Of a DNA stretch of 64,000 nucleotides, positions 23,977-58,424 are shown piece after piece (positions within the stretch are counted from its first letter, which is position 1; every line of letters starts with the position of its first letter). The position numbers were made by a program, and so were the translations under genes. The DNA comes from Candidatus Hydrogenedentota bacterium. Its GTDB lineage: Bacteria > Hydrogenedentota > Hydrogenedentia > Hydrogenedentales > JAEUWI01. The stretch is taken from assembly GCA_034669905.1 (NCBI GenBank), contig JAXMOL010000005.1, positions 1 to 64,000 of the forward strand, written 5' to 3'. The notes beneath the pieces are model-generated. The model ran no database searches. It was not told the DNA's origin and saw only the letters and a list, made by a program, of their open reading frames with translations.

Positions 23977-24984
23977 TTAGAAGAGCGAAACCAGTACGCC
24001 AAAGGCGCGGGTGGTCGGGAAAGAAGAAGGATACTTCTGGAATTCCACGTGCCCATCCATGAACAGCCAATTGGAGCCACCGGGGATGTGGTTGTAATCC
24101 ACCGTGTCCAGGCTGACCAAGTCGCCAAGGACCGGAATGGTACTCTGCGCCTGGCTCGAACCAGCCGGGTTGTTAATATCCGTGATGAAGAAGCGCTCAA
24201 TGCCTTCACGGGTACGCTGAATCTCGATGCCAGAATTGTCAATGTTATCGTCGTAGGCGTTCTCGAAGTTGACAGGATCCGCGGACCAAGCCGTTATATT
24301 CGCCGTAACCGTGTTCTGGATGGCGGCCACGAAGCCCGCCTGGATATAGGGACCTACTGCGGCCGGACCGGCCGGAATGGCTCCATCATTGGGATCCACA
24401 CCGTCCACCAGATAATCCTGGCCCCCTCTGCCACTCATGGCCCATCCGAGGTAGAGATAGGATTCTGCCGTCAGCCCGCAGGGGTCAACCGTACCCTCAA
24501 GGGGAAGACCGGCTTCTTGTTCAAACCAATAGCCCGCGCCACCAAGTACTTCGGCACCACCGCCGTCCGACGGGCACACCATGGTATTCACATCGGTGAG
24601 GTATTCCGGATAGACCGAGGGACCGTCAAAAACGAATTCCGTGTCCGGGGAGTTTCCTGCAGGCTGTCCCAGTCCGGGAGGTGCCGGATTGGGGTATTGA
24701 CATTCGAGATCGTTGGGCCGACCATAGTCTGCGGTCGTACCACCGCCCGCCGGCGAACTGATTACCCAGGACTGGCGTTGGGCCATCGGGGGAAACTTTT
24801 CGCCCTTGGACTCGTTGGCGTACATCTTAAAGACCACGCCAAGCTGTTTGAGATTGTTTTGGCAGCTGGCGCGACGGGCCGCTTCACGGGCACGGGCCAG
24901 CGCTGGGAGTAGGATCGCGGCGAGGATGCCAATGATCGCGATAACAACCAGCAACTCTATGAGGGTGAAACCTTGTTTTTTCAT
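23977..24984 (-). CDS. Prepilin-type N-terminal cleavage/methylation protein, DUF1559 / H-X9-DG-type
   Basis: [43 protein letters not shown] and C-terminal [26 protein letters not shown]. Confidence 0.92.
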
Positions 24985-25200
24985 CGTATTCAAAGCCTCC
25001 TAAGCCTTACAAAGATGAATGCGGTTTACAAACTGTCTAATCGAAAATCTCTGAATTTGATAGGTCCGACACAATCTCCTTTCGCCGCACTGCGGCTTCG
25101 CGAACGACAGCCAAAACCACGCGGTACTGCTTCCTGATGTAATAAGAACACTACTTAACGGACGGTATATGCTAACGGTGCAGTCCGCGATAACTTATTC

Positions 25201-44871: not shown

Positions 44872-46026
44872 TCAGCGGGACTCCGTCGAAATTTGCTCGG
44901 CAGGCGCCGTTTCGGCCTTTGCCGCCCCGGCCGGGTAATACGTATGCATTCCGGTGAGGGGGCTGTAGGCACGGTTCGCCTGAAACTGGAGCACGAACAG
45001 AATAAGACACAGGATGGTGGTGAGCGCCACGGTGGGCCTCCCCCACGCTTCAAAGCGCATAAGCCAGGCACTCAGGGCGGCCAGGGCCACCCCACACAGC
45101 GCCAGCGGCAGGAAAAGCTGTCCCGCATTCTCCAGGGTCACATAGTCTATCGGAAGGGCCCCCGGGTAGACGCGGATGAACAACACGGCCAACACGGCGA
45201 ATCGGAAGGGAGCCGATTTCACCTTAAACAGCGCCCAGCCCAGCAGCGCCATCACCCCAATACCCCATGCCCACCCCTGCCAGGCGTGGGCCTCAACGTG
45301 GGCCACCGTTTCCGGCAACAATCCGATGGGATAGAACACGAGCAAGAGGGGTCCCACGATGGCATCAAGTGTCGGCAGCTGGGCGTAGAGAATATCCAGA
45401 TGGAACCAGTTCGCCACCATGGTCACCCCGAGGAATGGCAGCAGGCGCAGCCAATTGCGTTCCTCACTATCCCCGACGAAGAGTTCCATCAGAATAAGGA
45501 CGCCCAAGAGCGCAGCATTGACAGCAAAAACACCCGTTGCAATGGCAAAAGTCAGTAGGGCTATCGCGAAGGGAGCCACACCGCCGTCTTGCCGCACCCG
45601 GGCATACATCAGCAGGGTCAGCAACGCCATAAAGGTGGCCAGCCCATAGTATACGCCGGTGAGACTGAAAAGCGTCTCCGTCTTGACGGGATGGGCCATG
45701 AGGAAGGTGCCTGCCAGCGAGCCCAACCACGGAGGACCACCCACGAGTCTTCGGGTAAGCAGAAACACCAGTGCCATACAGCCGAACAAGATGGGTAAGG
45801 CGAAACCTGCCACCTCGATAATCGGGCTGCGCGCAAATGCGTCGGACCACATGGCGAGCCATGGCCAGGCGGCCGGATAGTCAAAATCCCGAGTGGTCAT
45901 GCCCCCATTGGGAAGCATGATAAGACTCGATCCGTAGACCAGGATTAGATAGAAGGTCATGGTGACGAAAAAAAATCCGGCACCGGGCTTCTTGCGGGGG
46001 GGCTTGCTGTCGTTTGTATCATCCAT
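44872..46026 (-). CDS. Polytopic membrane protein resembling the TMTC/GT-C glycosyltransferase membrane domain
   Basis: About 11 TM helices. FLMAHPVKTETLFSLTG resembles LFAxHPxxxEAVxWxxGR. Ends 1 bp before the next start. Confidence 0.6.
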   Translation of the reverse strand: MDDTNDSKPPRKKPGAGFFFVTMTFYLILVYGSSLIMLPNGGMTTRDFDYPAAWPWLAMWSDAFARSPIIEVAGFALPILFGCMALVFLLTRRLVGGPPWLGSLAGTFLMAHPVKTETLFSLTGVYYGLATFMALLTLLMYARVRQDGGVAPFAIALLTFAIATGVFAVNAALLGVLILMELFVGDSEERNWLRLLPFLGVTMVANWFHLDILYAQLPTLDAIVGPLLLVFYPIGLLPETVAHVEAHAWQGWAWGIGVMALLGWALFKVKSAPFRFAVLAVLFIRVYPGALPIDYVTLENAGQLFLPLALCGVALAALSAWLMRFEAWGRPTVALTTILCLILFVLQFQANRAYSPLTGMHTYYPAGAAKAETAPAEQISTESR

Positions 46027-46326: not shown

Positions 46327-46367
46327 AAACAAAGCCCCCTCATCGGGCACATGACCAATGAGGGGGC
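46327..46367 (-). terminator. Intrinsic terminator ending the riboswitch operon
   Basis: GCCCCCTCAT/ATGAGGGGGC stem, followed on the minus strand by TTTGTTT. Confidence 0.7.
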
Positions 46368-46389: not shown

Positions 46390-48903
46390 TTAACGCTGGG
46401 GGCGCCGTCCGAACGCAACCAGGGTCAACAGCGTAAGACTGAAGAGGAAGAACTCTTCTACTTTGTCGGCCAGGGTCTGTGCAACGCCCTGTTTCGAGAG
46501 CGCGCAACCCGGCGTCGTTACTTCGACGCGGGCCTCAAGCTCTGCCTCCGACAGAAAGCCATCGCTGTTGGTGTCCAGCGCATCAAACTGGGTGGTTGTC
46601 ACTGCGGACAAGGACGCCATGGCCTCTGCCAATGACAGCTGCCCATCATTATCCACGTCCGCAACAGCGAACAGGTTCAAGAGCGCTTCGGCGGCGGCAT
46701 CCAGCGTCACTTCGCCTTCGCCTTCGCCTTCGCCTTCGCCTTCTCCTTCTCCTTCACCTTCACCTTCACCTTCACCTTCTTCTTCTCCTTCTCCTTCTCC
46801 TTCTCCTTCTCCTTCTCCTTCACCGCCGGGCGCACCATCGAAATAGACGCGATAGATATTCCCGTCGATGGTCGAATTGGCCGCAAAGTCTCCAACGCGA
46901 ATATAGACGTCCGACGTGAAAGCGTTTACAAAAGCCGTGTAATAAACACCGGTGGTGTCGGCGGGGTGCAAGGTTTCATACAACTCAAAGTTACCCACTT
47001 CCCCCCTTCCACGGAATCCGGTGTCGAAAATCTGCACGCCGTCATTCCCCGGATTGACGAATTGATAGGAATCGTTGTAACCTGCCAAGCCGCCCGTAAG
47101 AAAGGCCGTATCCGTATCCACCAGGGTTCCGTCCAGCTCCCACGCGAGCGTCCGGTTATTGTCGAAAGCACTCATAAGGTCGTTAACGGTAAAGGTACGC
47201 AACTCCGCCGTGTTGGCATCCATTGCATAAACGATTGACGTACGGCCCAGCACGCTCAGGAGGTTGGAGGAATAGCTGCCTGCCGGTTTTTGCACCACCA
47301 CGCTCTTGTCCTGGAGCGCATACTTCGCCGACTTGCGAACCACGGGGTGGACCGCCTGCTTCTGGGCGCTCAGATCCAAAATGCGCAATTCGCTGGCTTC
47401 ACCAAAGGCACCGACATCGAGGAGCACCAGGTTGGTGGTGAGGAAGGTCCCCGAAAAGTGACTGATGGATGCGACGAGTGCTTCTTCGGAATAGTCCACC
47501 GGATTGGCGGTGTCGAAAAGATAGAGGTTTCCACCGAAGCCTGCTCCGAGCAAGACATGCTGGTTATCCGGTGAAAGGGCCATGAATCCCGGGTCACCTG
47601 TGTAACCCGAAGCAATAACTTCGAAAACGCCCGACTCAGCGGCCGTTTCCTGGTAAATGGCATCGCCATTCCAGAGTAAGAGTCGCTGATCTGACAGTCC
47701 CAGACCGACCAGGCCAAACGCGTTGGCGGCTACCTCGGGAAAACCCTCCTGTAAGACAAGTTCCGTCGTGGAAACTTCCCCCTCACCTTCTCCCTCGCCT
47801 TCACCACCGCGCGTACCTCCTTCACCCTCTCCTTCACCCTCTCCTTCGCCTTCACCCTCCCCTTCGCCTTCGCCCCCTTCCTCCAAGATCACGCGATAGA
47901 CATCGCCATTGATGGTGGAATTAGCCGCAAAATCACCGACACGAAGATTGGCGGTATCCGTGACGCCATTAAAAATAACGCTGTAGTAAAGCCCTGTCCC
48001 TTCAGCCGGCTGGAGTGCCTCGATGAACTCCAAGTTAGAGCCACTACCCGTACGCTGTTTGCTCCGTGTTCTTCCCAGGCCATCGAAGGCATAGACATTT
48101 ACGGCATCATTACCCGGATTGTAGAGGGTGCCGTCATCCGCGACGCCCGCTACGCCCCCGGTAAGCACGGCTTCATCGGCACTAACGGGAGTTCCGGCCG
48201 TCCAGACCAGCGTGCTGTTGGTGCTGTAGGCCGTGATGAAATCGCTCGGCAGGAAAGCACGCAATTCGGCCGTGTTAGCATCCATCACCAGAATATAGTC
48301 CGTGCTTCCGGGCGCGTAGCCCAAGGTGGCCGAGTAACTGCCCTCCGGTTTCACCAACACGGTCGCTTTGTCCACCGTGGGCTTCTTTAACACGGATACC
48401 GGACGGGCCTTGTTGGCGCTCAGGTCGAGGACCACCAATTCACTGGGTTCGCCAAACACCCCCACATCCAGCAGGACCAAGTCATTGTTCAAATACAACC
48501 CATCGAAGTGCCCCATGGTGGCCACCAGCGCGGAGGCTTCATAGTCAATCGGCGTGTGGGTATCAAGCACATAGAGATTGCCACTGAAACCCGCGCCAAG
48601 CAGGGCAAAGCGCCCGCCCGGTGCCATGGCGATGAAGGCCGGGTCTCCCACGTAGCCCGTGGCGATCGCATCGAAACTATCGGCATCCACCTCAGACTGA
48701 AGGTAAACCGTGTTGCCATTCCAGACGAGGAGACGTCCATCGGGCAAGGCATCACCAACCACGCCGAAAGCATTCGCATCGGCCTGTGGAAAGTTCTCAT
48801 ATTGCACGAAGGTGGCCGTCATTGCAGGGACCGCCCCCAGCAAACAGAGCCATACACACGCCCACCGTAATCCCGTTGTGATTTTCACGAACACATTCTC
48901 CAT
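46390..48903 (-). CDS. Surface protein: signal peptide, two tandem beta-rich domains, (GE)n linkers, EF-hand pair, C-terminal TM anchor
   Basis: Internal repeat NAFG(V/L)VG..RLL.WNG..GDP.F.A..LLGAGF, EF loops DVDNDGQLSLAE and DTNSDGFLSEAE, and a PGC...TM-RR tail. Confidence 0.85.
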   Translation of the reverse strand: MENVFVKITTGLRWACVWLCLLGAVPAMTATFVQYENFPQADANAFGVVGDALPDGRLLVWNGNTVYLQSEVDADSFDAIATGYVGDPAFIAMAPGGRFALLGAGFSGNLYVLDTHTPIDYEASALVATMGHFDGLYLNNDLVLLDVGVFGEPSELVVLDLSANKARPVSVLKKPTVDKATVLVKPEGSYSATLGYAPGSTDYILVMDANTAELRAFLPSDFITAYSTNSTLVWTAGTPVSADEAVLTGGVAGVADDGTLYNPGNDAVNVYAFDGLGRTRSKQRTGSGSNLEFIEALQPAEGTGLYYSVIFNGVTDTANLRVGDFAANSTINGDVYRVILEEGGEGEGEGEGEGEGEGEGEGGTRGGEGEGEGEGEVSTTELVLQEGFPEVAANAFGLVGLGLSDQRLLLWNGDAIYQETAAESGVFEVIASGYTGDPGFMALSPDNQHVLLGAGFGGNLYLFDTANPVDYSEEALVASISHFSGTFLTTNLVLLDVGAFGEASELRILDLSAQKQAVHPVVRKSAKYALQDKSVVVQKPAGSYSSNLLSVLGRTSIVYAMDANTAELRTFTVNDLMSAFDNNRTLAWELDGTLVDTDTAFLTGGLAGYNDSYQFVNPGNDGVQIFDTGFRGRGEVGNFELYETLHPADTTGVYYTAFVNAFTSDVYIRVGDFAANSTIDGNIYRVYFDGAPGGEGEGEGEGEGEGEEEGEGEGEGEGEGEGEGEGEGEGEVTLDAAAEALLNLFAVADVDNDGQLSLAEAMASLSAVTTTQFDALDTNSDGFLSEAELEARVEVTTPGCALSKQGVAQTLADKVEEFFLFSLTLLTLVAFGRRPQR
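46711..46824. repeat. Hexanucleotide coding repeat (Gly-Glu)n
   Basis: 114 bp of TTCNCC units: 19 dipeptides, one of them EE. Confidence 0.95.
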
Positions 48904-48958
48904 ATGATGCTACTGCGCGACCCTGATTTCAGGGTCGCGCTTACCTATCCATCAAGGG

Positions 48959-51472
48959 CTACTGGGCACCCCGGTTCCGAATCGTCACTAAGGTCAATAG
49001 GGTCAGCCCGAACAGGAAGAGCTCTTCCAGGGACACGCCAAGGGATTTTGCGCTCAGCGAACACCCTGGCAGGGGTTCAGCGACCTGGGCTTCCAGTTCC
49101 GCTTGCGTGAGAAAGCCATCGCTGTCTTGGTCGAGGGCGTCAAACTGGGTCGCCGTAATCCCAGACAGGGTGGCCATGGCTTCCACCAACGAGAGCCGCC
49201 CATCGCTATCCACGTCCGCACTGGCGAAGCCACCCAGCAGGGTCTCGGCGGCGACTTCCAAGGTTACTTCACCTTCACCTTCACCTTCACCTTCACCTTC
49301 ACCTTCACCTTCACCTTCACCTTCACCTTCTCCTTCTCCTTCTCCTTCTCCTTCTCCTTCTCCTTCTCCTTCTCCTTCTCCTTCGCCTTCACCTTCACCT
49401 TCACCTTCACCTTCGCCTTCACCTTCACCTTCACCCTCGCCACCCGGCATAGAGGAGATGCTTACCCGGTACACATCGCCGTCGATGGTGGAGCCCGGTG
49501 TAAAATCGGCGACGCGCAGGTAAACTTCATTGGTCACAGCATTGTGTATGGCAGAATAGTAGACACCACTTGCCTCGACGGGCTGAAGGGCAATCAGGAA
49601 CTCAAACTCTTCGTCCAGAAAAAGCGTGTTCCGGCTGAGGTATCCGCCATCGTAGACGTGCGCCGCGCCACTGCCCGGGTTGACGAAATAGTACTGATCC
49701 GTTACTGCCGCGACTCCGCCCGCGAGGAAGGGCTCGTCCGCGGTATGGAGGGTGCCGGCCGTTTCCCAGGCCAGGGTACGATTCTCATTGAAGGCCTCGA
49801 GCACATCTTCGCTTCTAAATGACCGGAGTTCACCCGTGTTGGCATCCATAGACAAAATGCGTTGGGAACCCAGCCCGACCTCAGACACGAACAGGTTGGC
49901 CGAATAACTACCAGCCGGTTTCTGCACGACTTGGGCTTTTTCGTCCAAGGCATATTTCGCTGATTTACTGACCACCGGGCGGCCGAGGGACTTCGTGGCA
50001 TTCAGATCGAGCATATGAAGTTCACTGGCTTCGCCAAAGCTGCCCACGTCGAGCAATAGAATGGCTCCCCCCATATAGGCCCCGGTAAAGTGACTGATGT
50101 TGGCAATCAAGGTCTCTTCGGTGTAGTCCGCAAAATTGTCCGTATCAATTTCATAGAGATTCCCACCAAACCCGGCGCCAAGCATGGCGTGCTTGTTATC
50201 AGGGGACATGGCAATAAAGGCGGGATCACCAATATAGCCGGTGGCCACCATCTCAAAGCTTCCTTTTTGATCCTGAATTTCGCGGTAAATGCTCTCACCG
50301 TCCCATACCAGCAACTGTCCGCCGGGCAGCGCCGTGCCCACCACACCGAAGGCGTTTTCTGCCGCAGCCGGGAATCCCGTGATCGGGGTGTATTCCGCGG
50401 AGTAAATGAGCGTTTCTCCTTCGCCTTCGCCTTCTCCCTCACCTTCTCCCTCTGCGCCGGACTCCTGAACCACGCGGTACACGTCCCCATTGATAGCGGA
50501 GCCCGCCGCGAAGTCGCCCACGCGAATATTGGTCGTATCGGTCGTCTCGTTGTAGATGACGGTGTAGTAGAGTCCCGTACCGCTCGCCGGTTGCAAGGTT
50601 TCTACCAGGGGCAGGGAGTCGACCCCGTCCCGGCGATTGGTGGTCCGGAGCTTGGAGTTGCTGTAATCGAATACCTTCACGGCGTCCGAACCCGGGTTAA
50701 GAAATTGGAGATCGGCATTCACACCGGCGATTCCACCGGTCAGCAGGGACTCATCGGTCATCACTTCTGCCGCCGATTCCCACGCGAGGGGCGTCGACGT
50801 CTCGTAGGCATTCAGGAGGGCCTCCAGCTCGATGGCCCGGAGCTCGCCCGTGTTTCCGTCCATGGCAAAGAGGAATTCCGGCGAATCAAAAAGGAGCGAC
50901 AGCGTGGAAGAATAACTACCGGCGGGCTTTTCAAGCACCGTCACTTTCGCAGCGGGAGCCGGCTTCTTCAAAACGGTCACCGGAAGAGACTTCGTTTGCG
51001 CCAGGTCGAATATCACCAGTTCGCTGGGTTCACCGAAGACACCGGCGTCCAGGAGGACGAGGTCGTTATTCAGGTAGAGCCCATCAAAGTGGCTCATGGT
51101 GGCCACCAGGGCAGAGGCCTCATAGTCTGCCGGGGTGTGAATATCGAAGAGATAGAGATTGCCGCTGAATCCTGCGCCCAACAAGGCAAAGCGACCGCCG
51201 GGAGCAATGGCCATGAAGGCGGGATCGCCCACATAACCGGTAGCAATCGCGGTAAAACTATCTTCGTCTACACCCGACTGAAGGTAAAGGGTGTTGCCGT
51301 TCCAGACGAGCAGGCGCCCATCGGGCAGCCCTTCGCCCACCACGCCGAAGGCATTGGAGTCGGCCTGGGGAAAGTTCTCATACTTCAGGAACTCCGCGGC
51401 CGATAAGGTGGCGCAAAGGACCAGGAAAAGTCCGGTAACGATGCAACGCGTGCGCAGAAATGGGTACAGCAT
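48959..51472 (-). CDS. Paralogous surface protein with the same architecture; first gene behind the B12 riboswitch
   Basis: Same duplicated domain, (GE)n, EF loops DVDSDGRLSLVE and DQDSDGFLTQAE, and a PGC...EELFLFGLTLLTLV-RNR tail. GGAG RBS. Confidence 0.85.
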   Translation of the reverse strand: MLYPFLRTRCIVTGLFLVLCATLSAAEFLKYENFPQADSNAFGVVGEGLPDGRLLVWNGNTLYLQSGVDEDSFTAIATGYVGDPAFMAIAPGGRFALLGAGFSGNLYLFDIHTPADYEASALVATMSHFDGLYLNNDLVLLDAGVFGEPSELVIFDLAQTKSLPVTVLKKPAPAAKVTVLEKPAGSYSSTLSLLFDSPEFLFAMDGNTGELRAIELEALLNAYETSTPLAWESAAEVMTDESLLTGGIAGVNADLQFLNPGSDAVKVFDYSNSKLRTTNRRDGVDSLPLVETLQPASGTGLYYTVIYNETTDTTNIRVGDFAAGSAINGDVYRVVQESGAEGEGEGEGEGEGETLIYSAEYTPITGFPAAAENAFGVVGTALPGGQLLVWDGESIYREIQDQKGSFEMVATGYIGDPAFIAMSPDNKHAMLGAGFGGNLYEIDTDNFADYTEETLIANISHFTGAYMGGAILLLDVGSFGEASELHMLDLNATKSLGRPVVSKSAKYALDEKAQVVQKPAGSYSANLFVSEVGLGSQRILSMDANTGELRSFRSEDVLEAFNENRTLAWETAGTLHTADEPFLAGGVAAVTDQYYFVNPGSGAAHVYDGGYLSRNTLFLDEEFEFLIALQPVEASGVYYSAIHNAVTNEVYLRVADFTPGSTIDGDVYRVSISSMPGGEGEGEGEGEGEGEGEGEGEGEGEGEGEGEGEGEGEGEGEGEGEGEGEGEGEGEGEGEVTLEVAAETLLGGFASADVDSDGRLSLVEAMATLSGITATQFDALDQDSDGFLTQAELEAQVAEPLPGCSLSAKSLGVSLEELFLFGLTLLTLVTIRNRGAQ
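49268..49441. repeat. Hexanucleotide coding repeat (Gly-Glu)29
   Basis: 174 bp of TTCACC, TTCTCC and TTCGCC units in homogeneous blocks. Confidence 0.95.
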
Positions 51473-51676
51473 AATTCTCAACTCCGTTCGTACTATCTTC
51501 GAACATCGTCCAGCCCGATAGCTCTCGAGCCTTGGATTCCCCGGGGATAACACCGATCGATTGGGTACATCACACCTGTACCCGTGGTGTGGGAGTGTAA
51601 AAAGGAGCAGGTTGCTCTAGGGTGCCGCCTGTCCCGCAACGATTTTCCCGCGAATCATTGCAAAACATGCCTTGCA

Positions 51677-51840
51677 GGACAGATATTCTGGCTTCCGGAT
51701 CGGCCTACTGACCGCGCCTTCCCTTCCCTGGGGGAAAGTGGCTCTTGCGGTGTTCGTCCCCGGTTACAGCAGCGCGACTGCGACGGATTTGCACCGTCTT
51801 CCCTGTATCTGCGAGGTAAAACCAGCCCAAGCTGGTGTGT
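51677..51840 (-). ncRNA. Cobalamin (B12) riboswitch
   Basis: Minus strand reads AGGGAAGACGGTGCAAATCCGTCGCAGTCGCGCTGCTGTAA...GCCACT...GGGAAGG...GGAAGCCAGAATATCTGTC: the canonical core elements and B12 box, in order. Confidence 0.92.
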
Positions 51841-51847
51841 TCCGAGA

Positions 51848-51877
51848 AGTATACCTAGGCCCTTTCCGGTGAATCAA
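51848..51877 (-). promoter_or_regulatory. Sigma-70-type promoter of the riboswitch leader
   Basis: Minus strand TTGATT-N18-TATACT immediately 5' of the aptamer. Confidence 0.55.
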
Positions 51878-53018: not shown

Positions 53019-55886
53019 CTATTGCGCCCCGTCTGCGGAGGCCTCGGTAATCAAGACCGGCGTGCCGATGGGCAGCTCCTCGAAAACTTTGATGACGTCA
53101 TCATTAAGCAGACGAACGCACCCGTGAGAAGACGGCGTGCCAATTTTCTCTTCACCGTTGGTGCCGTGGATATAGATGCACCGTTGCTTCGAGTCCACCA
53201 GGGTCCCATCGGGACGGGTGCCTTTGTTCACTCCCGGCTCCATACCATCCAGCCAGAGGACCCGGGTGAGCACCAGATCCTCCACCACGTCATCGCCGGG
53301 CTTCCAGATCTCCTTCGTCGCGCGACGGGCTCGAAACACCTGGCCCCAGGGGGCATCGGCACCAAACTTCTCATCCACTTTGTGCCAACCCAAGGGGGTC
53401 TGAAGGCTGCCAGAGACGGAACCCGTGCCCGCGCTCGCCGTGGCGCAGGGAAGGGTCTTACGGATCTTTCCACCTTCGATCACGTGAAAGGTTTGTTTAT
53501 CCACATCAATCCAGACTCCGAGCGCCTGGCCCACCTTCTCCGCCCAACCGTATCGATTGAGTGCGCTTAACGCTTCGTCCCCCATGTCGGGTCCTCCTTG
53601 ATTACTCTCTGGGCCAATTGACGCGGCGTTGCTGGTGGCTTTTACCCCATCGGCCACCTCGATAATTACCGTCACCCCCTCGGGCACCTCCAGGTGATAT
53701 CCTGACGCGGGATCAAAGCGGGCCGTCATGCTGCCCTGCGGGTGGGGCACGGTGAGCGTCATGGCGGGCAACCCGTCAATCTGCGGCGGGGCGAAGCGAA
53801 CGGATGTCCAACCCGGCGCGGCCGGTGACAGGCCCAGGACGTGCTCTGCGAGGATATAAATGGGGCTGCTGCTCCAGGGGTGGCACCAACTGGTATTCCA
53901 CTTCTGATCTGGCCCCCAGACTTCCATGCAGGTCGTGGCGCCGGCGCGCAGCATTTCTTTCCAGCCATACTCCGTGTCGTTCGTCAACAGGGCAAAACCC
54001 AGTTCGGGATTGCCCGCGCGAAAGCAGGCTTCGATTACATAGGACGCGATGTACACGCCGCATTGCAGGCCCTTCTCTTCGATGAGGGCGAGCATTTTCT
54101 GGGGGTCTGCCCCTGCCGTCAGGCCAAAGGCCAGGGGGATGGCGTTGGCATGGAGTGAACTGTGAGTCGAGCCCGGCGCATCCACATAGAGTCCCGTCTT
54201 CGGATCCGCCAGTTGCGCGGCGAACGCGGCAGACACCTGTTCGGCTTTCGCCGTATAGGCCGCACCATCCCGGCCTAGCACCTCTTCCAAACGGGCGGCG
54301 GCGCGCAGGGCTCCGTAATAAAAGCCGTTCAGGACCGTATTGGCCTTATCTTTTGAGAAGTCATAGTCGTAGCCATCACGGAGATTCTCCGGCCAATCGA
54401 CCAAGAGCCACTTTTCCGGTTTATCGAGCCCCTCTACCAGACCGGCTTCATTGGCAAAACTTCCATAGTAGGTGAAGAGTCCGGGAAACACATGATCGAC
54501 CATGGCTTCCAGGAAATCCCGATCTCCGGTACGCTCATAATACGCCTCCAGCAAAAACGGGTATTGCAGGGGGTATTCGGCAATTTCCTGCATGAAATGG
54601 CCCGGGGCCACCGCCATCATACCGGGATGTATCTGGCAGGAAAGGTAAAAATCATAGAGTGCTTTTCGGGTAAGGGTAGCGTCGTTGGTAAGCCACAGGT
54701 GGGAGCGCCCCGTAATGACCGCGTCACCGAGATACTGCCCTTTCTCGCGGGTCGGGCAATCCAGGAAGCCCCCTTGAGAGCCCATCTGAACTCCCCGCTT
54801 GCAGATCTCAAAAATCTGGGCGAGCTGCGCGTCATCCGAGGTAAAGCGGCTCGCGGCATCGTCAAAGGGATGGTGTCTGACGTCCACCCAGACTTCGGGT
54901 TCTACGGGCGCGTCCAGAATTTCCAAATAGCGGAAGGCACGATAGTCATAAAAAGGGATGATATCCTCGTTGCCCGAAAGGACCGGCTTCTCTTCGTAGG
55001 TCATGCTGGCGCGAATCTTATAGCGGACTCGACCATCCGACTCCAGTTCCTCCCCGTGGCGCACCGTAATGGTGTCCCCCGCCTTCCCCTTAATGCGAAT
55101 GCGCGTATGACCTGCAATCTCGGTTCCGAAATCATAGAACCAGACACCGTTTCCCAACTGCTTTTTCGTGACAGGCTCTTTTCGGTACCGCGCGAGGGGG
55201 GGCGTAGCCTGCTGCACAAAGACGTGGTCCTGACGCCCCGTATCGGGCTTCCGCCAGGCGCCGTCATCGAAGCCCACCATGTCCCACCCGACGGGAAGCA
55301 GCCGCATGTCAATGTTTTCGAGAAACTGGGTCTGGTACCCAATCGTTTCTTCCCCTGGAAATGCCTCGAGGGGGAAAACGCGCCACTGCTCGTTTGAGCG
55401 AAATGTCTCGGACGTGCCATCGGCATAGGTCACCTCCAGGCGAAGTATCATCCCGGAGCGATTGTCCCCGCTTCCCCAAACGCGGTTGCGAAGCCCCTGG
55501 TAAAAGACGTGCGCCGCGAGGCAGTTGGGCCCTTTCTCCAGGTAGTCCGCAATGTCCAGCCAGTAATAGGGATAGGAAAAGTAGTATCCCCCTTCCGGTC
55601 CCTGGACGACGGGAAACCCGTTAATCCGCAGCTTATAGTAGTCGTCGCCTGTAATGTAGAGGTGTGCAGCCGTTGGCGCATCCTTCAGCACGATCTCGGA
55701 GCGCATCAGGGTGTGGATGTTCTTCGGACCTTCCACTTCCGGCGGCTTGACCTGCTCCCGAAGCAAGAAATCAACCGTGGGAAGTCCGGCCATTCGCGGG
55801 TCACGAAGCCACGTGGCATCGCCAAAGACATCGGCCCAGAGGGGGGCCGCAATCAACAAAACAACTATCAGCACGTAACGGACCAT
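53019..55886 (-). CDS. GH78 alpha-L-rhamnosidase-family protein fused to a C-terminal YkuD L,D-transpeptidase domain
   Basis: AGGAG RBS, signal peptide, YDFGTE, DCPTREKGQYLGD, GATTCMEVW and SWCHPWSS, then IYIHGT...SHGCVRL. Confidence 0.9.
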   Translation of the reverse strand: MVRYVLIVVLLIAAPLWADVFGDATWLRDPRMAGLPTVDFLLREQVKPPEVEGPKNIHTLMRSEIVLKDAPTAAHLYITGDDYYKLRINGFPVVQGPEGGYYFSYPYYWLDIADYLEKGPNCLAAHVFYQGLRNRVWGSGDNRSGMILRLEVTYADGTSETFRSNEQWRVFPLEAFPGEETIGYQTQFLENIDMRLLPVGWDMVGFDDGAWRKPDTGRQDHVFVQQATPPLARYRKEPVTKKQLGNGVWFYDFGTEIAGHTRIRIKGKAGDTITVRHGEELESDGRVRYKIRASMTYEEKPVLSGNEDIIPFYDYRAFRYLEILDAPVEPEVWVDVRHHPFDDAASRFTSDDAQLAQIFEICKRGVQMGSQGGFLDCPTREKGQYLGDAVITGRSHLWLTNDATLTRKALYDFYLSCQIHPGMMAVAPGHFMQEIAEYPLQYPFLLEAYYERTGDRDFLEAMVDHVFPGLFTYYGSFANEAGLVEGLDKPEKWLLVDWPENLRDGYDYDFSKDKANTVLNGFYYGALRAAARLEEVLGRDGAAYTAKAEQVSAAFAAQLADPKTGLYVDAPGSTHSSLHANAIPLAFGLTAGADPQKMLALIEEKGLQCGVYIASYVIEACFRAGNPELGFALLTNDTEYGWKEMLRAGATTCMEVWGPDQKWNTSWCHPWSSSPIYILAEHVLGLSPAAPGWTSVRFAPPQIDGLPAMTLTVPHPQGSMTARFDPASGYHLEVPEGVTVIIEVADGVKATSNAASIGPESNQGGPDMGDEALSALNRYGWAEKVGQALGVWIDVDKQTFHVIEGGKIRKTLPCATASAGTGSVSGSLQTPLGWHKVDEKFGADAPWGQVFRARRATKEIWKPGDDVVEDLVLTRVLWLDGMEPGVNKGTRPDGTLVDSKQRCIYIHGTNGEEKIGTPSSHGCVRLLNDDVIKVFEELPIGTPVLITEASADGAQ

Positions 55887-56050
55887 GGTAATGTAAGCTC
55901 CTGAAAAGATTGAGTTGTAGTGTAGCAATCCCAGACGGGCCTTTCCCACCTGCTGCGCGCGCTACCCGCCCGTTACGGCGGACCCGCTACCCTGCCCGTG
56001 CGCCGGGAGAAAAACCTGAGCCGCCAGTGCACCTCGGGCATTCCGCAAAT

Positions 56051-56092
56051 AAAAACAAAGAAACGGCATCCCGTTGTAGAGACACCGTTTCT
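56051..56092 (-). terminator. Intrinsic terminator between the two GH78 genes
   Basis: Minus strand AGAAACGGTGTCTC-TACAAC-GGGATGCCGTTTCT (14 bp with G-U pairs) followed by TTGTTTTT. Confidence 0.75.
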
Positions 56093-56147
56093 GAGTTTTT
56101 TCGTATCGAGTCAGACGGACCGCTACCTTGTGGTGCGAACAGCGACG

Positions 56148-58424
56148 TTAACGTATCGGCTCGCCATTGCTACGTACCGACAGGCCGTCCACGGCGACAA
56201 TCGCGACGGGCACTCCTTCGGGCACGGTCAGTTGATAGCCAGTGGCCGGGTCGTAGTTTACGGTCATACGGCCAAGGGGGTGGGGCACGGTCAACGTCAT
56301 CGCGGGCAAGCCTGCGATCTTCGCAGGTGCAAAGCGAACGGCTTCCCAACCCGGCGCTGCCGGCGTCAGACCCAGGACATGCTCCGCAATGAGATAGATG
56401 GGACTCGTGGCCCAGGGATGGCACCAACTCATGTTGCTCTTCTGGTCAGGACTCCACACTTCCAGGCACGTCGTGGCGCCCGCGCGAAGCATCTCGTTCC
56501 AGCTGTTCTTGTCATCATTGGTAAGCAGTGCGTAGCCCAGGTCCGGGGCGCCAGCACGGAAGCAGGCTTCAATCACATAGGACGCGATGTACACCCCACA
56601 ACTCAAGCCTTTGCCCTTAATGAACGCAAGCATCCGGGCCGGATCGGCGCCCTTCGTCAGGCCGAAAGCCAGGGGAACGGCGTTGGCATGCAGAGAGCTG
56701 TGGGTCGAACCCGGTCTATCCACATACAGGCCCGTTGCCGGATCGACGAGCAACGTTGCAAAGGCCTCGGCAACGCGGTCGGCCCGGGCCGTATAGGCAC
56801 CGCTGTCCCTCCCCAGGAGGGCCTCCAGACGGGCGGCACACTGAAGTGCGCCATAGTAGAAACCGTTCAGCAAGGTATTGGGGGCGTCATTGCTGGGGTA
56901 GTCATAGCCATCACGCATATTACCCGGCCAATCGATCACCAGCCATTTCTCGGGTTTGTTCAAGCCCACCAGAAGTCCCGTTTCATTCTCATAACGGGCG
57001 TAGTAGGCAAAGAGTCCCGGAAACACATTGTCCACCATGGCTTCCAGGAAGGCACGGTCACCCGAGTGGTTGTAATAATACTCCAGCATCAAGGGATATT
57101 GGAGCGGAAACTCGGCGATTTCCTGCATAAAGTGACCTGGCGCGACCCCCATCATGCCCGGGTGAATCTTACAGGACTGATAAAACTCATAGAGTGCTTT
57201 TTTCGTCAAACTGGGGTCACCGGTGAGCCAGAGGTGAGACCGTGCCGCAATCACCGTGTCGCCCAGATACTGTCCCTTCTCCCGGGTCGGGCAGTCGACA
57301 AATCCTCCCTGAGAGCCCATCTGGATCGTATTCTTGCAGAGTGTGAAGATCTGTTCCAGGGACGTGTCGCTGGCGGTGAAGGTGCTCTCGGACGGATCAA
57401 AAGGATGATGGCGAACCTCCACCCACAGCACGGGCTCTACCGGACTATCCAGGATTTCCATATAACGAAAAGCCCGATAGTCATAGAAGGGAATCACATC
57501 CACCTTCCCCGAAAGAACCGGCTTCTCTTCGTAGGTCATGTTTGCCCGCAACTTGTAGCGGACCCGACCATCGTCGTTGAGCTCCTCGCCATGGCGCACG
57601 GTGATTACCTGGCCGGCCTCACCCTGCACCTGAACCCGGGTATGGCCAACGATTTCCGTACCGAAATCGTAAAACCAGGTGCCATCCTCCAGCCGTTTCG
57701 CGACCTTGGGCTGGACGGCATAGCGCTGCAACGGAGGGGTGACTTGTTCGATAAAGACATGATCCTGTCGCCCTACTGCCGGGGACACCCACGTACGCTC
57801 GTCAAATCCCACCTGCTCCCACCCCACTGGCATATGGCGCATGTCGATGTGCTCGAGGAACTGGGTGCTGTAGCCAATCGTATCTTCCCCGGGGAAGGCT
57901 TCCAGCGGCAAGACACGCCAGTTGTCATCGGTCTCGAAAATTTCGGTGGTCCCGTCCGCATAGGTCACCTCCAGCCGCAGGATGAAGCCTGACCGATTGT
58001 CGGCGCTACCCCATACCCGGTTACGCAGGCCCTGATAATAGACGTGGCTGGCGAGGCAGTTCGTGCCGCCCTGGAGTGCCTTCGAAATCTCCAGCGCGTA
58101 GTAGGGGTAAGAAAAGTCATAGCCCCCTTCCGGTCCCTGAACAAGCGGGGTACCGTTCACACTGAGTTTATAGTAGTCATCACCCGTAACATAAAGTTGG
58201 GCAGAGGTTGGTTTTTCCCGGAGCGTGATTTCATCCCGCATCAGGGTGTGGATATTCTTGGGCCCCGATGCGGCGGGCGCCGGTTCTTTCGCACGAATCA
58301 GATAATTGATAGTGGGCAGGTCCGCCATTCGCGGGTCCGACAGCCATTGGGCATCACCAAACACATCGGCACGAACGGAAAAAGTGACCAGGGTGGCCAC
58401 AAGCAGGATACTACGAATAATCAT
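56148..58424 (-). CDS. Exported GH78 alpha-L-rhamnosidase-family protein (paralog without YkuD)
   Basis: Signal peptide, DCPTREKGQYLGD, GATTCLEVW and SWCHPWA. Colinear with its neighbour. Confidence 0.9.
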   Translation of the reverse strand: MIIRSILLVATLVTFSVRADVFGDAQWLSDPRMADLPTINYLIRAKEPAPAASGPKNIHTLMRDEITLREKPTSAQLYVTGDDYYKLSVNGTPLVQGPEGGYDFSYPYYALEISKALQGGTNCLASHVYYQGLRNRVWGSADNRSGFILRLEVTYADGTTEIFETDDNWRVLPLEAFPGEDTIGYSTQFLEHIDMRHMPVGWEQVGFDERTWVSPAVGRQDHVFIEQVTPPLQRYAVQPKVAKRLEDGTWFYDFGTEIVGHTRVQVQGEAGQVITVRHGEELNDDGRVRYKLRANMTYEEKPVLSGKVDVIPFYDYRAFRYMEILDSPVEPVLWVEVRHHPFDPSESTFTASDTSLEQIFTLCKNTIQMGSQGGFVDCPTREKGQYLGDTVIAARSHLWLTGDPSLTKKALYEFYQSCKIHPGMMGVAPGHFMQEIAEFPLQYPLMLEYYYNHSGDRAFLEAMVDNVFPGLFAYYARYENETGLLVGLNKPEKWLVIDWPGNMRDGYDYPSNDAPNTLLNGFYYGALQCAARLEALLGRDSGAYTARADRVAEAFATLLVDPATGLYVDRPGSTHSSLHANAVPLAFGLTKGADPARMLAFIKGKGLSCGVYIASYVIEACFRAGAPDLGYALLTNDDKNSWNEMLRAGATTCLEVWSPDQKSNMSWCHPWATSPIYLIAEHVLGLTPAAPGWEAVRFAPAKIAGLPAMTLTVPHPLGRMTVNYDPATGYQLTVPEGVPVAIVAVDGLSVRSNGEPIR

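Follow-up and report, generated by a model that had tools for sequence, protein, structure and literature searches.

Repression by B12 is established for the cobalamin riboswitch family, whose members also control cobalt transporters. Among the closest described counterparts of the locus reported here is BtuG of Bacteroides thetaiotaomicron (BtuG2, 8BMZ; BtuGH, 8BLW), an exported beta-propeller that is under riboswitch control and is encoded together with a domain of the BtuH type (PMC10404256, PMC13616437); BtuG2 is described as seven-bladed (PMC10404256). BtuH (BtuH2, 7BIZ; PMC8941943) is a proven B12 binder (PMC8941943, PMC13616437) whose metal ligands are given in PMC13616437. We analyzed a window of 64,000 nucleotides (nt), the start of contig JAXMOL010000005.1 of Candidatus Hydrogenedentota bacterium (GCA_034669905.1), in which a cobalamin riboswitch precedes two paralogous genes, A and B, each encoding two copies of a domain predicted to form a six-bladed beta-propeller. 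Like BtuG, these are riboswitch-controlled, apparently exported, predicted propeller proteins associated with a BtuH-type partner, and like BtuG they are proposed to catch cobamides outside the cell. The tie to the riboswitch across relatives and the association with a BtuH homolog make an accessory surface cobamide-capture role, within a pilin-linked, BtuB-independent regulon, the best reading of these sequences, and we regard it as probable; a capture role had already been suggested in an earlier note made from the window sequence.

The aptamer (51661-51840; like all features of the locus, on the minus strand) matches RF00174 over its full length (model positions 1-189) with 88.2 bits and E 1.9e-20, against a gathering score of 31.5, and is the sole Rfam match inside the window, so the Infernal/Rfam search bears out the cobalamin aptamer read by eye in the earlier note. 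Gene A (48959-51472) and gene B (46390-48903), each encoding 837 amino acids (aa), follow it 55 bp apart, also as first described.

The phylum Hydrogenedentota was covered with 135 genomes, and 82 of them carry the domain. Scanning one locus per genome in all 82, we found a cobalamin riboswitch directly upstream and on the same strand in 70, with 50-335 nt (median 141) between aptamer and profile match; riboswitch status in one genome, G047, was judged by combining two separate searches. Five of the 82 have less than 250 nt of upstream DNA, and the proportion among those with upstream DNA is 70/77. The link is seen in 10 of the 11 families that carry the domain, although most genomes of the phylum hold only one to three cobalamin riboswitches each. 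Homologs of the domain are very strongly associated with B12 riboswitches, in keeping with the proposed capture role. Outside the phylum genomes, a riboswitch precedes 13 of 17 metagenome loci, six of them Phycisphaerae-type, and three of the four misses have less than 350 nt upstream; distant homologs are labeled Phycisphaerae or Planctomycetota by their sources. These Phycisphaerae-type and metagenome loci indicate that the link crosses phyla. One family, f3, has the window-type domain in 0 of 23 genomes and a distantly related domain in 22 of 23 (HHalign 92.9%, E 3.8e-7), which lies directly behind a riboswitch in all nine loci read; in f3, a second putative propeller has thus displaced the window-type one. 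One further genome, G034, has an f3-type propeller in its riboswitch operon, and its copies of the window-type family are unregulated. Tandem cobalamin riboswitches stand before the operon at three loci (L020 in G091, L126 in G105 and L127 in G103).

Counted within the flanking DNA retrieved, at least 30 of the 82 genomes have a homolog of BtuH as the gene after the propeller, and the homolog occurs in 94 of the 135. Versions from relatives match 8BLW_B (E 9e-10) and 7BIZ (E 1e-5). The organism's own copy, on contig C18, matches 7BIZ at E 3e-9, with N399, E406, D522 and E584 aligned and S582 replaced by Thr, although the second aligned stretch is weak alone (i-E 1.1). By sequence comparison, the partner gene is a true homolog of BtuH with four of five metal ligands aligned; it is this gene, rather than A or B, that corresponds to BtuH, and it is typically followed by a pilin-like gene rather than sharing an operon with btuB. 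The pilin-like product has a prepilin motif (TIGR02532 over cut-off in 4/4 orthologs scanned) and an H-X9-DG motif. Its model (pLDDT 92) predicts a 50-residue N-terminal helix and a pilin-type core with large insertions, and the top 22 rows of a fold search are all pilins or pseudopilins, at weak similarity (best Z 5.3, root-mean-square deviation (rmsd) 3.2 Å, 119 residues aligned). An ortholog is present in 118 of 135 genomes, nearly always in single copy and mostly at 53-73% identity, and in genomes without the catchers it stands alone behind the riboswitch (for example at L123, L125, L126, L128, L130, L131 and L133-L135). The order riboswitch, propeller, BtuH homolog, pilin recurs in the Phycisphaerae-type loci L143, L144, L146 and L149, and in part in L147 and L148.

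In many relatives these partners lie directly downstream of the propeller in one operon; here they sit behind a second riboswitch. The C18 contig, which carries the BtuH homolog, breaks inside a run of Gly-Glu (GE) repeats, and contig C97 ends in a GE run, with a tail that terminates at a stop overlapping the pilin ortholog's start; in the closed genome G068 the two genes are adjacent, with the same downstream neighbors. Because of this break and this adjacency, the C18 BtuH homolog and the C97 pilin ortholog very probably form one operon. The earlier view of the window locus as closed is therefore not supported, its partners being encoded elsewhere in the genome.

Each protein begins with a hydrophobic, signal-like segment (judged by eye) and carries its two domain copies, joined in A by a GE linker, ahead of a (GE)n run, two EF-hands and a transmembrane (TM) tail. 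This is the architecture of the earlier note, except that the domain, at 312-320 aa, is slightly shorter than the roughly 330 residues given there. The copies are A1 (50459-51397, 313 aa), A2 (49445-50404, 45% identical to A1), B1 (47881-48816, 65% identical to A1) and B2 (46828-47772, 53% identical to A2), with pairwise identities of 45-65%. An AlphaFold2 model of A1 built with 63 sequences (pLDDT 90.6, pTM 0.90) shows, in its DSSP string, six blades of four strands each, and it can be aligned over its whole length with Pizza6 and NHL domains. Its best structural matches reach Z ~21 and rmsd ~3 Å over 255-268 residues; against 2p4o the values are Z 21.0, rmsd 3.4 Å and 256 aligned residues, as for a six-bladed fold of the SMP-30/gluconolactonase type. 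The domain thus resembles SMP-30/gluconolactonase, NHL and strictosidine-synthase propellers (2p4o, 2dg0, 7x36, Pizza6) in overall fold (Z 19-21, rmsd ~3 Å), with 7-14% identity and none standing out, and differs from them in that catalytic metal ligands are not evident. We know of no link between those propellers and B12.

Sequence searches place the domain apart from named families. Neither A and B nor the members searched have a Pfam or NCBIfam family for it; no propeller or BtuG-type Pfam family matches any of 63 members, and a profile search of PDB sequences gave nothing significant (best YncE, 3vgz, E 0.023 over 47 profile positions). Among 1.84 billion proteins, 103 representatives were found at E ≤0.001, the weakest including unrelated repeat proteins; leads from the ESM Atlas all fell below 0.9, and a pattern scan of genome contigs returned only one close relative, a relative 90% identical. 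PF16819 (DUF5074, YncE-type), to which we take BtuG to belong, has no match in the genome. BtuG entries are absent from the best 50 rows of two VIA fold searches and from the Foldseek list, which does not by itself exclude a match. Of the propeller-like, BtuG-like domain in the earlier note, the propeller is therefore upheld as a prediction, and likeness to BtuG beyond that word is not. The predicted blades number six against seven in BtuG; the family match is limited to the marginal one to YncE; BtuG has a lipoprotein anchor, whereas A and B have a C-terminal sorting tail and the single Cys of each mature chain lies near the C-terminus; and no BtuB was found in the genome for them to cap or share an operon with. 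Moreover, many relatives do without the window-type propeller, whereas the btu loci of Bacteroidetes consistently retain btuG (PMC8941943). We therefore rejected the identification of A and B as BtuG, on blade number, family match, anchor and BtuB partnership alike. The two proteins, though none of BtuG, BtuH or BtuJ, probably function in the manner of the accessory catchers of Bacteroides.

Across 119 non-redundant sequences, the conserved columns (A1 numbering) include W32, Y55, D58, F/Y77, H103, D117, E126, S163, D180, E185 and R187. On the model, the face with W32, Y55, D58, F/Y77, H103, D117, S163, D180, E185 and R187 is a somewhat favored candidate for the cobamide-binding surface. The Glu/Asn/Asn/Asp set that we take to be the catalytic calcium ligands of SMP-30-type enzymes has no conserved columns at the inner-strand starts in the same alignment, and blade 5 has Gly-Gly there (mapped by eye, with no superposition). 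A complex prediction for the pilin head and A1 (score 0.00, mark 0.32) carries no weight either way.

The display tail of A (48962-49441) comprises a (GE)29 run, EF-hands at residues 753-764 and 781-792, and a Cys804-TM-basic end; B shares this architecture, with EF-hands at 749-760 and 777-788 and Cys800, and the loops, two per protein, are of the DxDxDG type. The earlier note treated this stalk as a special feature. It is instead a generic, genome-wide display tail: that of A matches ~40 places in the genome, and (GE)5+ runs occur in 74 open reading frames (ORFs), 44 of which end in a TM-like segment, and we rejected the idea of a B12-specific device. In relatives the same domain carries other tails (short VPA-type, CFI-box and dockerin-like). 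Three leads from A and B were dropped: the Pfam TrAA12 match of each protein is a compositional effect of the (GE)n run that it covers, the XopAW and lanmodulin matches reflect EF-hand similarity far under cut-off, and acidity as a BtuG-like trait failed a control on 53 other (GE)n proteins.

The ends of A and B recall MYXO-CTERM, in which a Cys motif, a TM helix and a short basic end recur on dozens of proteins per genome (PMC11980579; bioRxiv 10.1101/2023.06.07.544157) and which is cleaved for surface anchoring (PMC11980579). The same pattern can be read in both proteins, with a longer Cys-to-TM spacer and after (GE)n and EF-hands, unlike MYXO-CTERM. TIGR03901 (MYXO-CTERM) does not match the window protein P0001 and matches 1/63 members at E 0.005. 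Hydrogenedentota go unmentioned in the main text of bioRxiv 10.1101/2023.06.07.544157. We favor a sorting signal particular to this lineage, probably cleaved as in MYXO-CTERM, over a permanent anchor in the inner membrane. A further parallel, by description only, is ZepA (PMC10957091), a PEP-CTERM exoprotein, likewise C-terminally sorted, whose role as a micronutrient scavenger was identified from its regulator and gene neighborhood, with zinc and Zur there in place of B12 and a riboswitch here.

Gene content fits an organism that takes up B12 by a route other than BtuB. The genome (95.7% complete) encodes MetH-like and mutase-like B12-binding proteins (named by eye), and PF02570 and PF01717 (CbiC, MetE) have no match in it; with a MetH-like gene and no metE or cbiC, the organism, judged on its genes, needs B12. 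CobU, CobT and CobS-like queries from G034 found nothing in the genome, and PF14717 (BtuJ/DUF4465) has no match in the genome or in the propeller members. An outer membrane is indicated by BamA; PF00593 and PF07715 (TonB-dependent barrel and plug) have no match in the whole genome. Secretin gives seven matches over cut-off, and PilB- and PilT-like ORFs are present (named by eye). PF01497 matches only on contigs C1 and C16, and C16 carries a BtuFCD-like ABC cluster with no riboswitch and with all scores under the equivalog cut-offs. The absence of btuB, btuFCD, cbi/cob and metE from the window, as first noted, is thus confirmed, and for PF00593, PF07715, PF02570 and PF01717 it extends to the genome. 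Among relatives, no riboswitch was found near any of 20 TonB-dependent-receptor (PF00593) loci scanned, whose upstream DNA ranged from 243 nt to >2 kb.

These elements suggest the following order of events. Low intracellular B12 would let the riboswitch permit expression; A and B would then leave the cytoplasm by Sec-type export and be held at the surface by the generic (GE)n/EF-hand/Cys-TM tail. One propeller face, with its conserved aromatic and acidic residues, would bind the cobamide and hand it to the BtuH homolog and the pilin-like protein, whose gene order is observed and whose part in such a hand-over is conjectural. In the weakest step, the pilin-like subunit, mounted on a type II secretion or type IV pilus machine, might carry the cofactor through a secretin across the outer membrane, from where the BtuFCD-like ABC transporter on C16 would pass it on to the MetH-like and mutase-like enzymes. 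The propeller would be the outermost, optional layer of this putative BtuB-independent uptake regulon.

Several observations weigh against such a role. Seven of the 82 genomes (G034 and six of genus g63) lack the riboswitch, and these riboswitch-free copies imply that the fold can serve other roles. The Hydrogenedentota genomes are kin, so tallies across them are not independent. The 135 genomes divide into 91 with propeller (window-type or f3-type) and BtuH homolog alike, 34 with neither and 10 discordant when the six unregulated g63 genomes are left out of "propeller present," and discordance rises to 16/135 when they are counted in. The pilin is kept without propeller or BtuH homolog in 24/135 genomes, so that the propeller is dispensable. 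PF00593 does occur in 43/135 phylum genomes, and the 20 loci scanned for a btuB behind a riboswitch go with coverage of 150 of the 223 riboswitch positions in the phylum. Enzymes and NHL scaffolds, 10-13% identical, are nearest in fold, the propeller has no sequence link to any characterized B12 binder, conservation of its presumed top face exceeds that of the bottom only modestly (0.46 vs 0.38, faces set by hand from DSSP), and the acidity of the proteins (-7 to -8 per 100 aa) is ordinary among this genome's surface proteins. The five g63 loci L086-L089 and L091, in five of the six genomes, share a different leader: ~300 nt upstream lie a strong promoter-like site and a conserved leader without an Rfam match, possibly a cis-element of a new kind or a leader peptide.

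The missing sequence link would also suit a propeller that belongs to the B12-uptake regulon without binding the cofactor, serving as a scaffold, a lid or an adhesin that positions the BtuH homolog or the pilin or sticks the cell to B12 producers. Non-catalytic NHL-type propellers are among the closest folds, and propeller and BtuH homolog are lost together (in family f13, both in 23, neither in 30 and one discordant, g63 copies left out). Such a role is nevertheless quite unlikely in our judgment: the propeller often forms a transcription unit behind a riboswitch of its own, separate from BtuH and pilin (in this genome and in families f1, f2 and f8), and fourfold amplification would fit a stoichiometric binder better than a fixed scaffold. 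We consider it improbable that the propeller is a secreted enzyme of the SMP-30, lactonase or strictosidine-synthase fold, one that would release cobamide bound to proteins of other organisms, trim it or take the place of a B12-dependent step. The top structural matches are indeed six-bladed enzymes (7x36, 2p4o and 2dg0, Z 20-21), D58, H103, D117, E126, D180, E185 and R187 are conserved polar residues, and one of the genome's four riboswitches controls a B12-independent enzyme, NrdAB. Against this stand the lack of a conserved counterpart of the SMP-30-type ligand set at the inner-strand starts, as mapped by eye, the cytoplasmic location of B12-independent isozymes as opposed to the exported A and B, and neighbor genes of the uptake type.

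What the regulon takes up, and whether the four copies differ in it, bears on two further alternatives. Scavenging of cobalt ions in place of intact cobamides would accord with the cobalt transporters under other cobalamin riboswitches and with acidic, EF-hand-bearing proteins, but we think it very improbable: the genome has no cbiC/cobH or cobS/U/T match to use cobalt, the partner is a BtuH homolog, EF-hands and acidity are generic in this genome, and the propeller domains have no Cys and 2-6 His. The earlier note further proposed that the copies capture different corrinoids. The copies are only 45-65% identical, and BtuG paralogs differ up to 1000-fold in cobinamide affinity without contact-residue differences (PMC13616437), so conserved residues leave room for specialization. 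The data lend this divergence no support, however, and we hold it unlikely: of 29 conserved positions picked by hand, 26 are identical in all the copies, and seven of the eight other genomes of the genus have single-domain genes, the tandem form being shared only with G065. In a tree of 25 rows sampling five families, the copies fall inside the genus clade, where A1 groups with B1 and A2 with B2, which fits internal duplication followed by gene duplication. Recent within-genus amplification by that route is the likely origin of the four copies, and its most plausible effect is a higher capacity for capture, not a change in specificity. On balance, cobamide capture remains the reading we prefer.

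Upstream of the aptamer lies a sigma70-type promoter (51848-51877; -35 TTGATT, 18 nt, -10 TATACT). Taken alone, the site is not above chance in a window scan (1 found vs 3.1 expected); of 16 aligned riboswitch leaders (15 propeller loci and the C18 BtuH-like locus), however, every one has a TATACT-like -10 immediately ahead of the aptamer and 15 have a TTGA(C)-type -35, and the promoter of the earlier note is thus retained on conservation and not on its own score. Between aptamer and start codon, a 5' leader and putative expression platform (51473-51660) contains a weak 5-bp hairpin with a U-run (51617-51605) and a GGAG Shine-Dalgarno-like site ahead of the ATG at 51472; its folding is not above shuffles and does not separate attenuation from sequestration of the ribosome-binding site. 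Between the genes, an 11-bp perfect stem with no U-tract (48915-48940; -30.4 kcal/mol, z -4.69, 0/200 shuffles as good) may stabilize the mRNA or couple translation of gene B. It has no significant second copy in the genome, which rules out a dispersed repeat. An intrinsic terminator-like hairpin (46334-46367; 13-bp stem and U-tract, z -3.8) closes the unit, just beyond the end of gene B, where the unit had first been drawn to stop. Downstream of it, 44872-46026 (minus strand) encodes a multi-pass membrane protein without a Pfam match, homologs of which flank the operon in L009, L151, L152 and L167. At 53019-58424 (minus strand) lie two tandem alpha-L-rhamnosidase-like genes, one with a YkuD L,D-transpeptidase domain fused at its C-terminus.

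The four cobalamin riboswitches of the genome are at the window locus and before nrdAB, a PEP-CTERM protein on C13 and the stalked BtuH homolog on C18. At C62:8264-12712 (L162), the switch precedes class Ia nrdAB. A search of the genome with PF02867 gave no second reductase (NrdJ-type); the counterpart that depends on B12 may belong to a different type or be missing from the assembly. At C13:9028-10867 (L004, L161), the gene behind it encodes a PEP-CTERM protein of 321 aa that matches nothing in Pfam, NCBIfam or PDB. G034 carries a domain homologous to this protein as a fusion with its f3-type propeller, and in G063 a similar gene stands ahead of a second pilin paralog; the PEP-CTERM protein is a further candidate B12 binder. 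In the two most distant genomes (L137 in G001, L169 in G002), a riboswitch is followed by a divergent pilin-like gene and then by an unrelated 430-aa secreted protein, and riboswitches in G034 (L139, L140) and G100 (L124) lead btuFCD-like clusters and a cbiR-cobU-cobT-cobS-like salvage operon. Pilin-like ORFs number 59 in the 7.4 Mb of this genome, in which no TonB-dependent receptor was found; 47 have an H-X9-DGH-type motif, and one lies in the window at 23977-24999. At C1:158681-163820 (L096), an iron-chelate/heme-type ABC cluster and an HmuS-like ORF (named by eye) come directly after a pilin-like gene, which occupies the place of the TonB-dependent receptor of other bacteria.

In the literature searched, mostly open-access and without supplementary tables, we found no description of such a propeller/BtuH/pilin B12 system. 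If the capture role is correct, the few known extracellular B12 binders (BtuG, BtuH and BtuJ) would be joined by a new fold class, and a domain that matches no Pfam or NCBIfam family would gain a function; the 313-aa single domains should be easy to express, which makes the claim directly testable. The locus would tie one member of the large, uncharacterized DUF1559/H-X9-DG pilin-like family to a defined nutrient and points to B12 acquisition in diderm bacteria without a detectable TonB-dependent receptor. A bolder picture, which we offer tentatively and hold to be possible though doubtful, is that Hydrogenedentota and Phycisphaerae import B12 without BtuB by way of a catcher-loaded pilin-like subunit on a retractile, secretin-based pilus, with the propeller as a new class of cobamide binder and the dozens of other H-X9-DG paralogs per genome as substrate-specific importers that replace TonB-dependent receptors.

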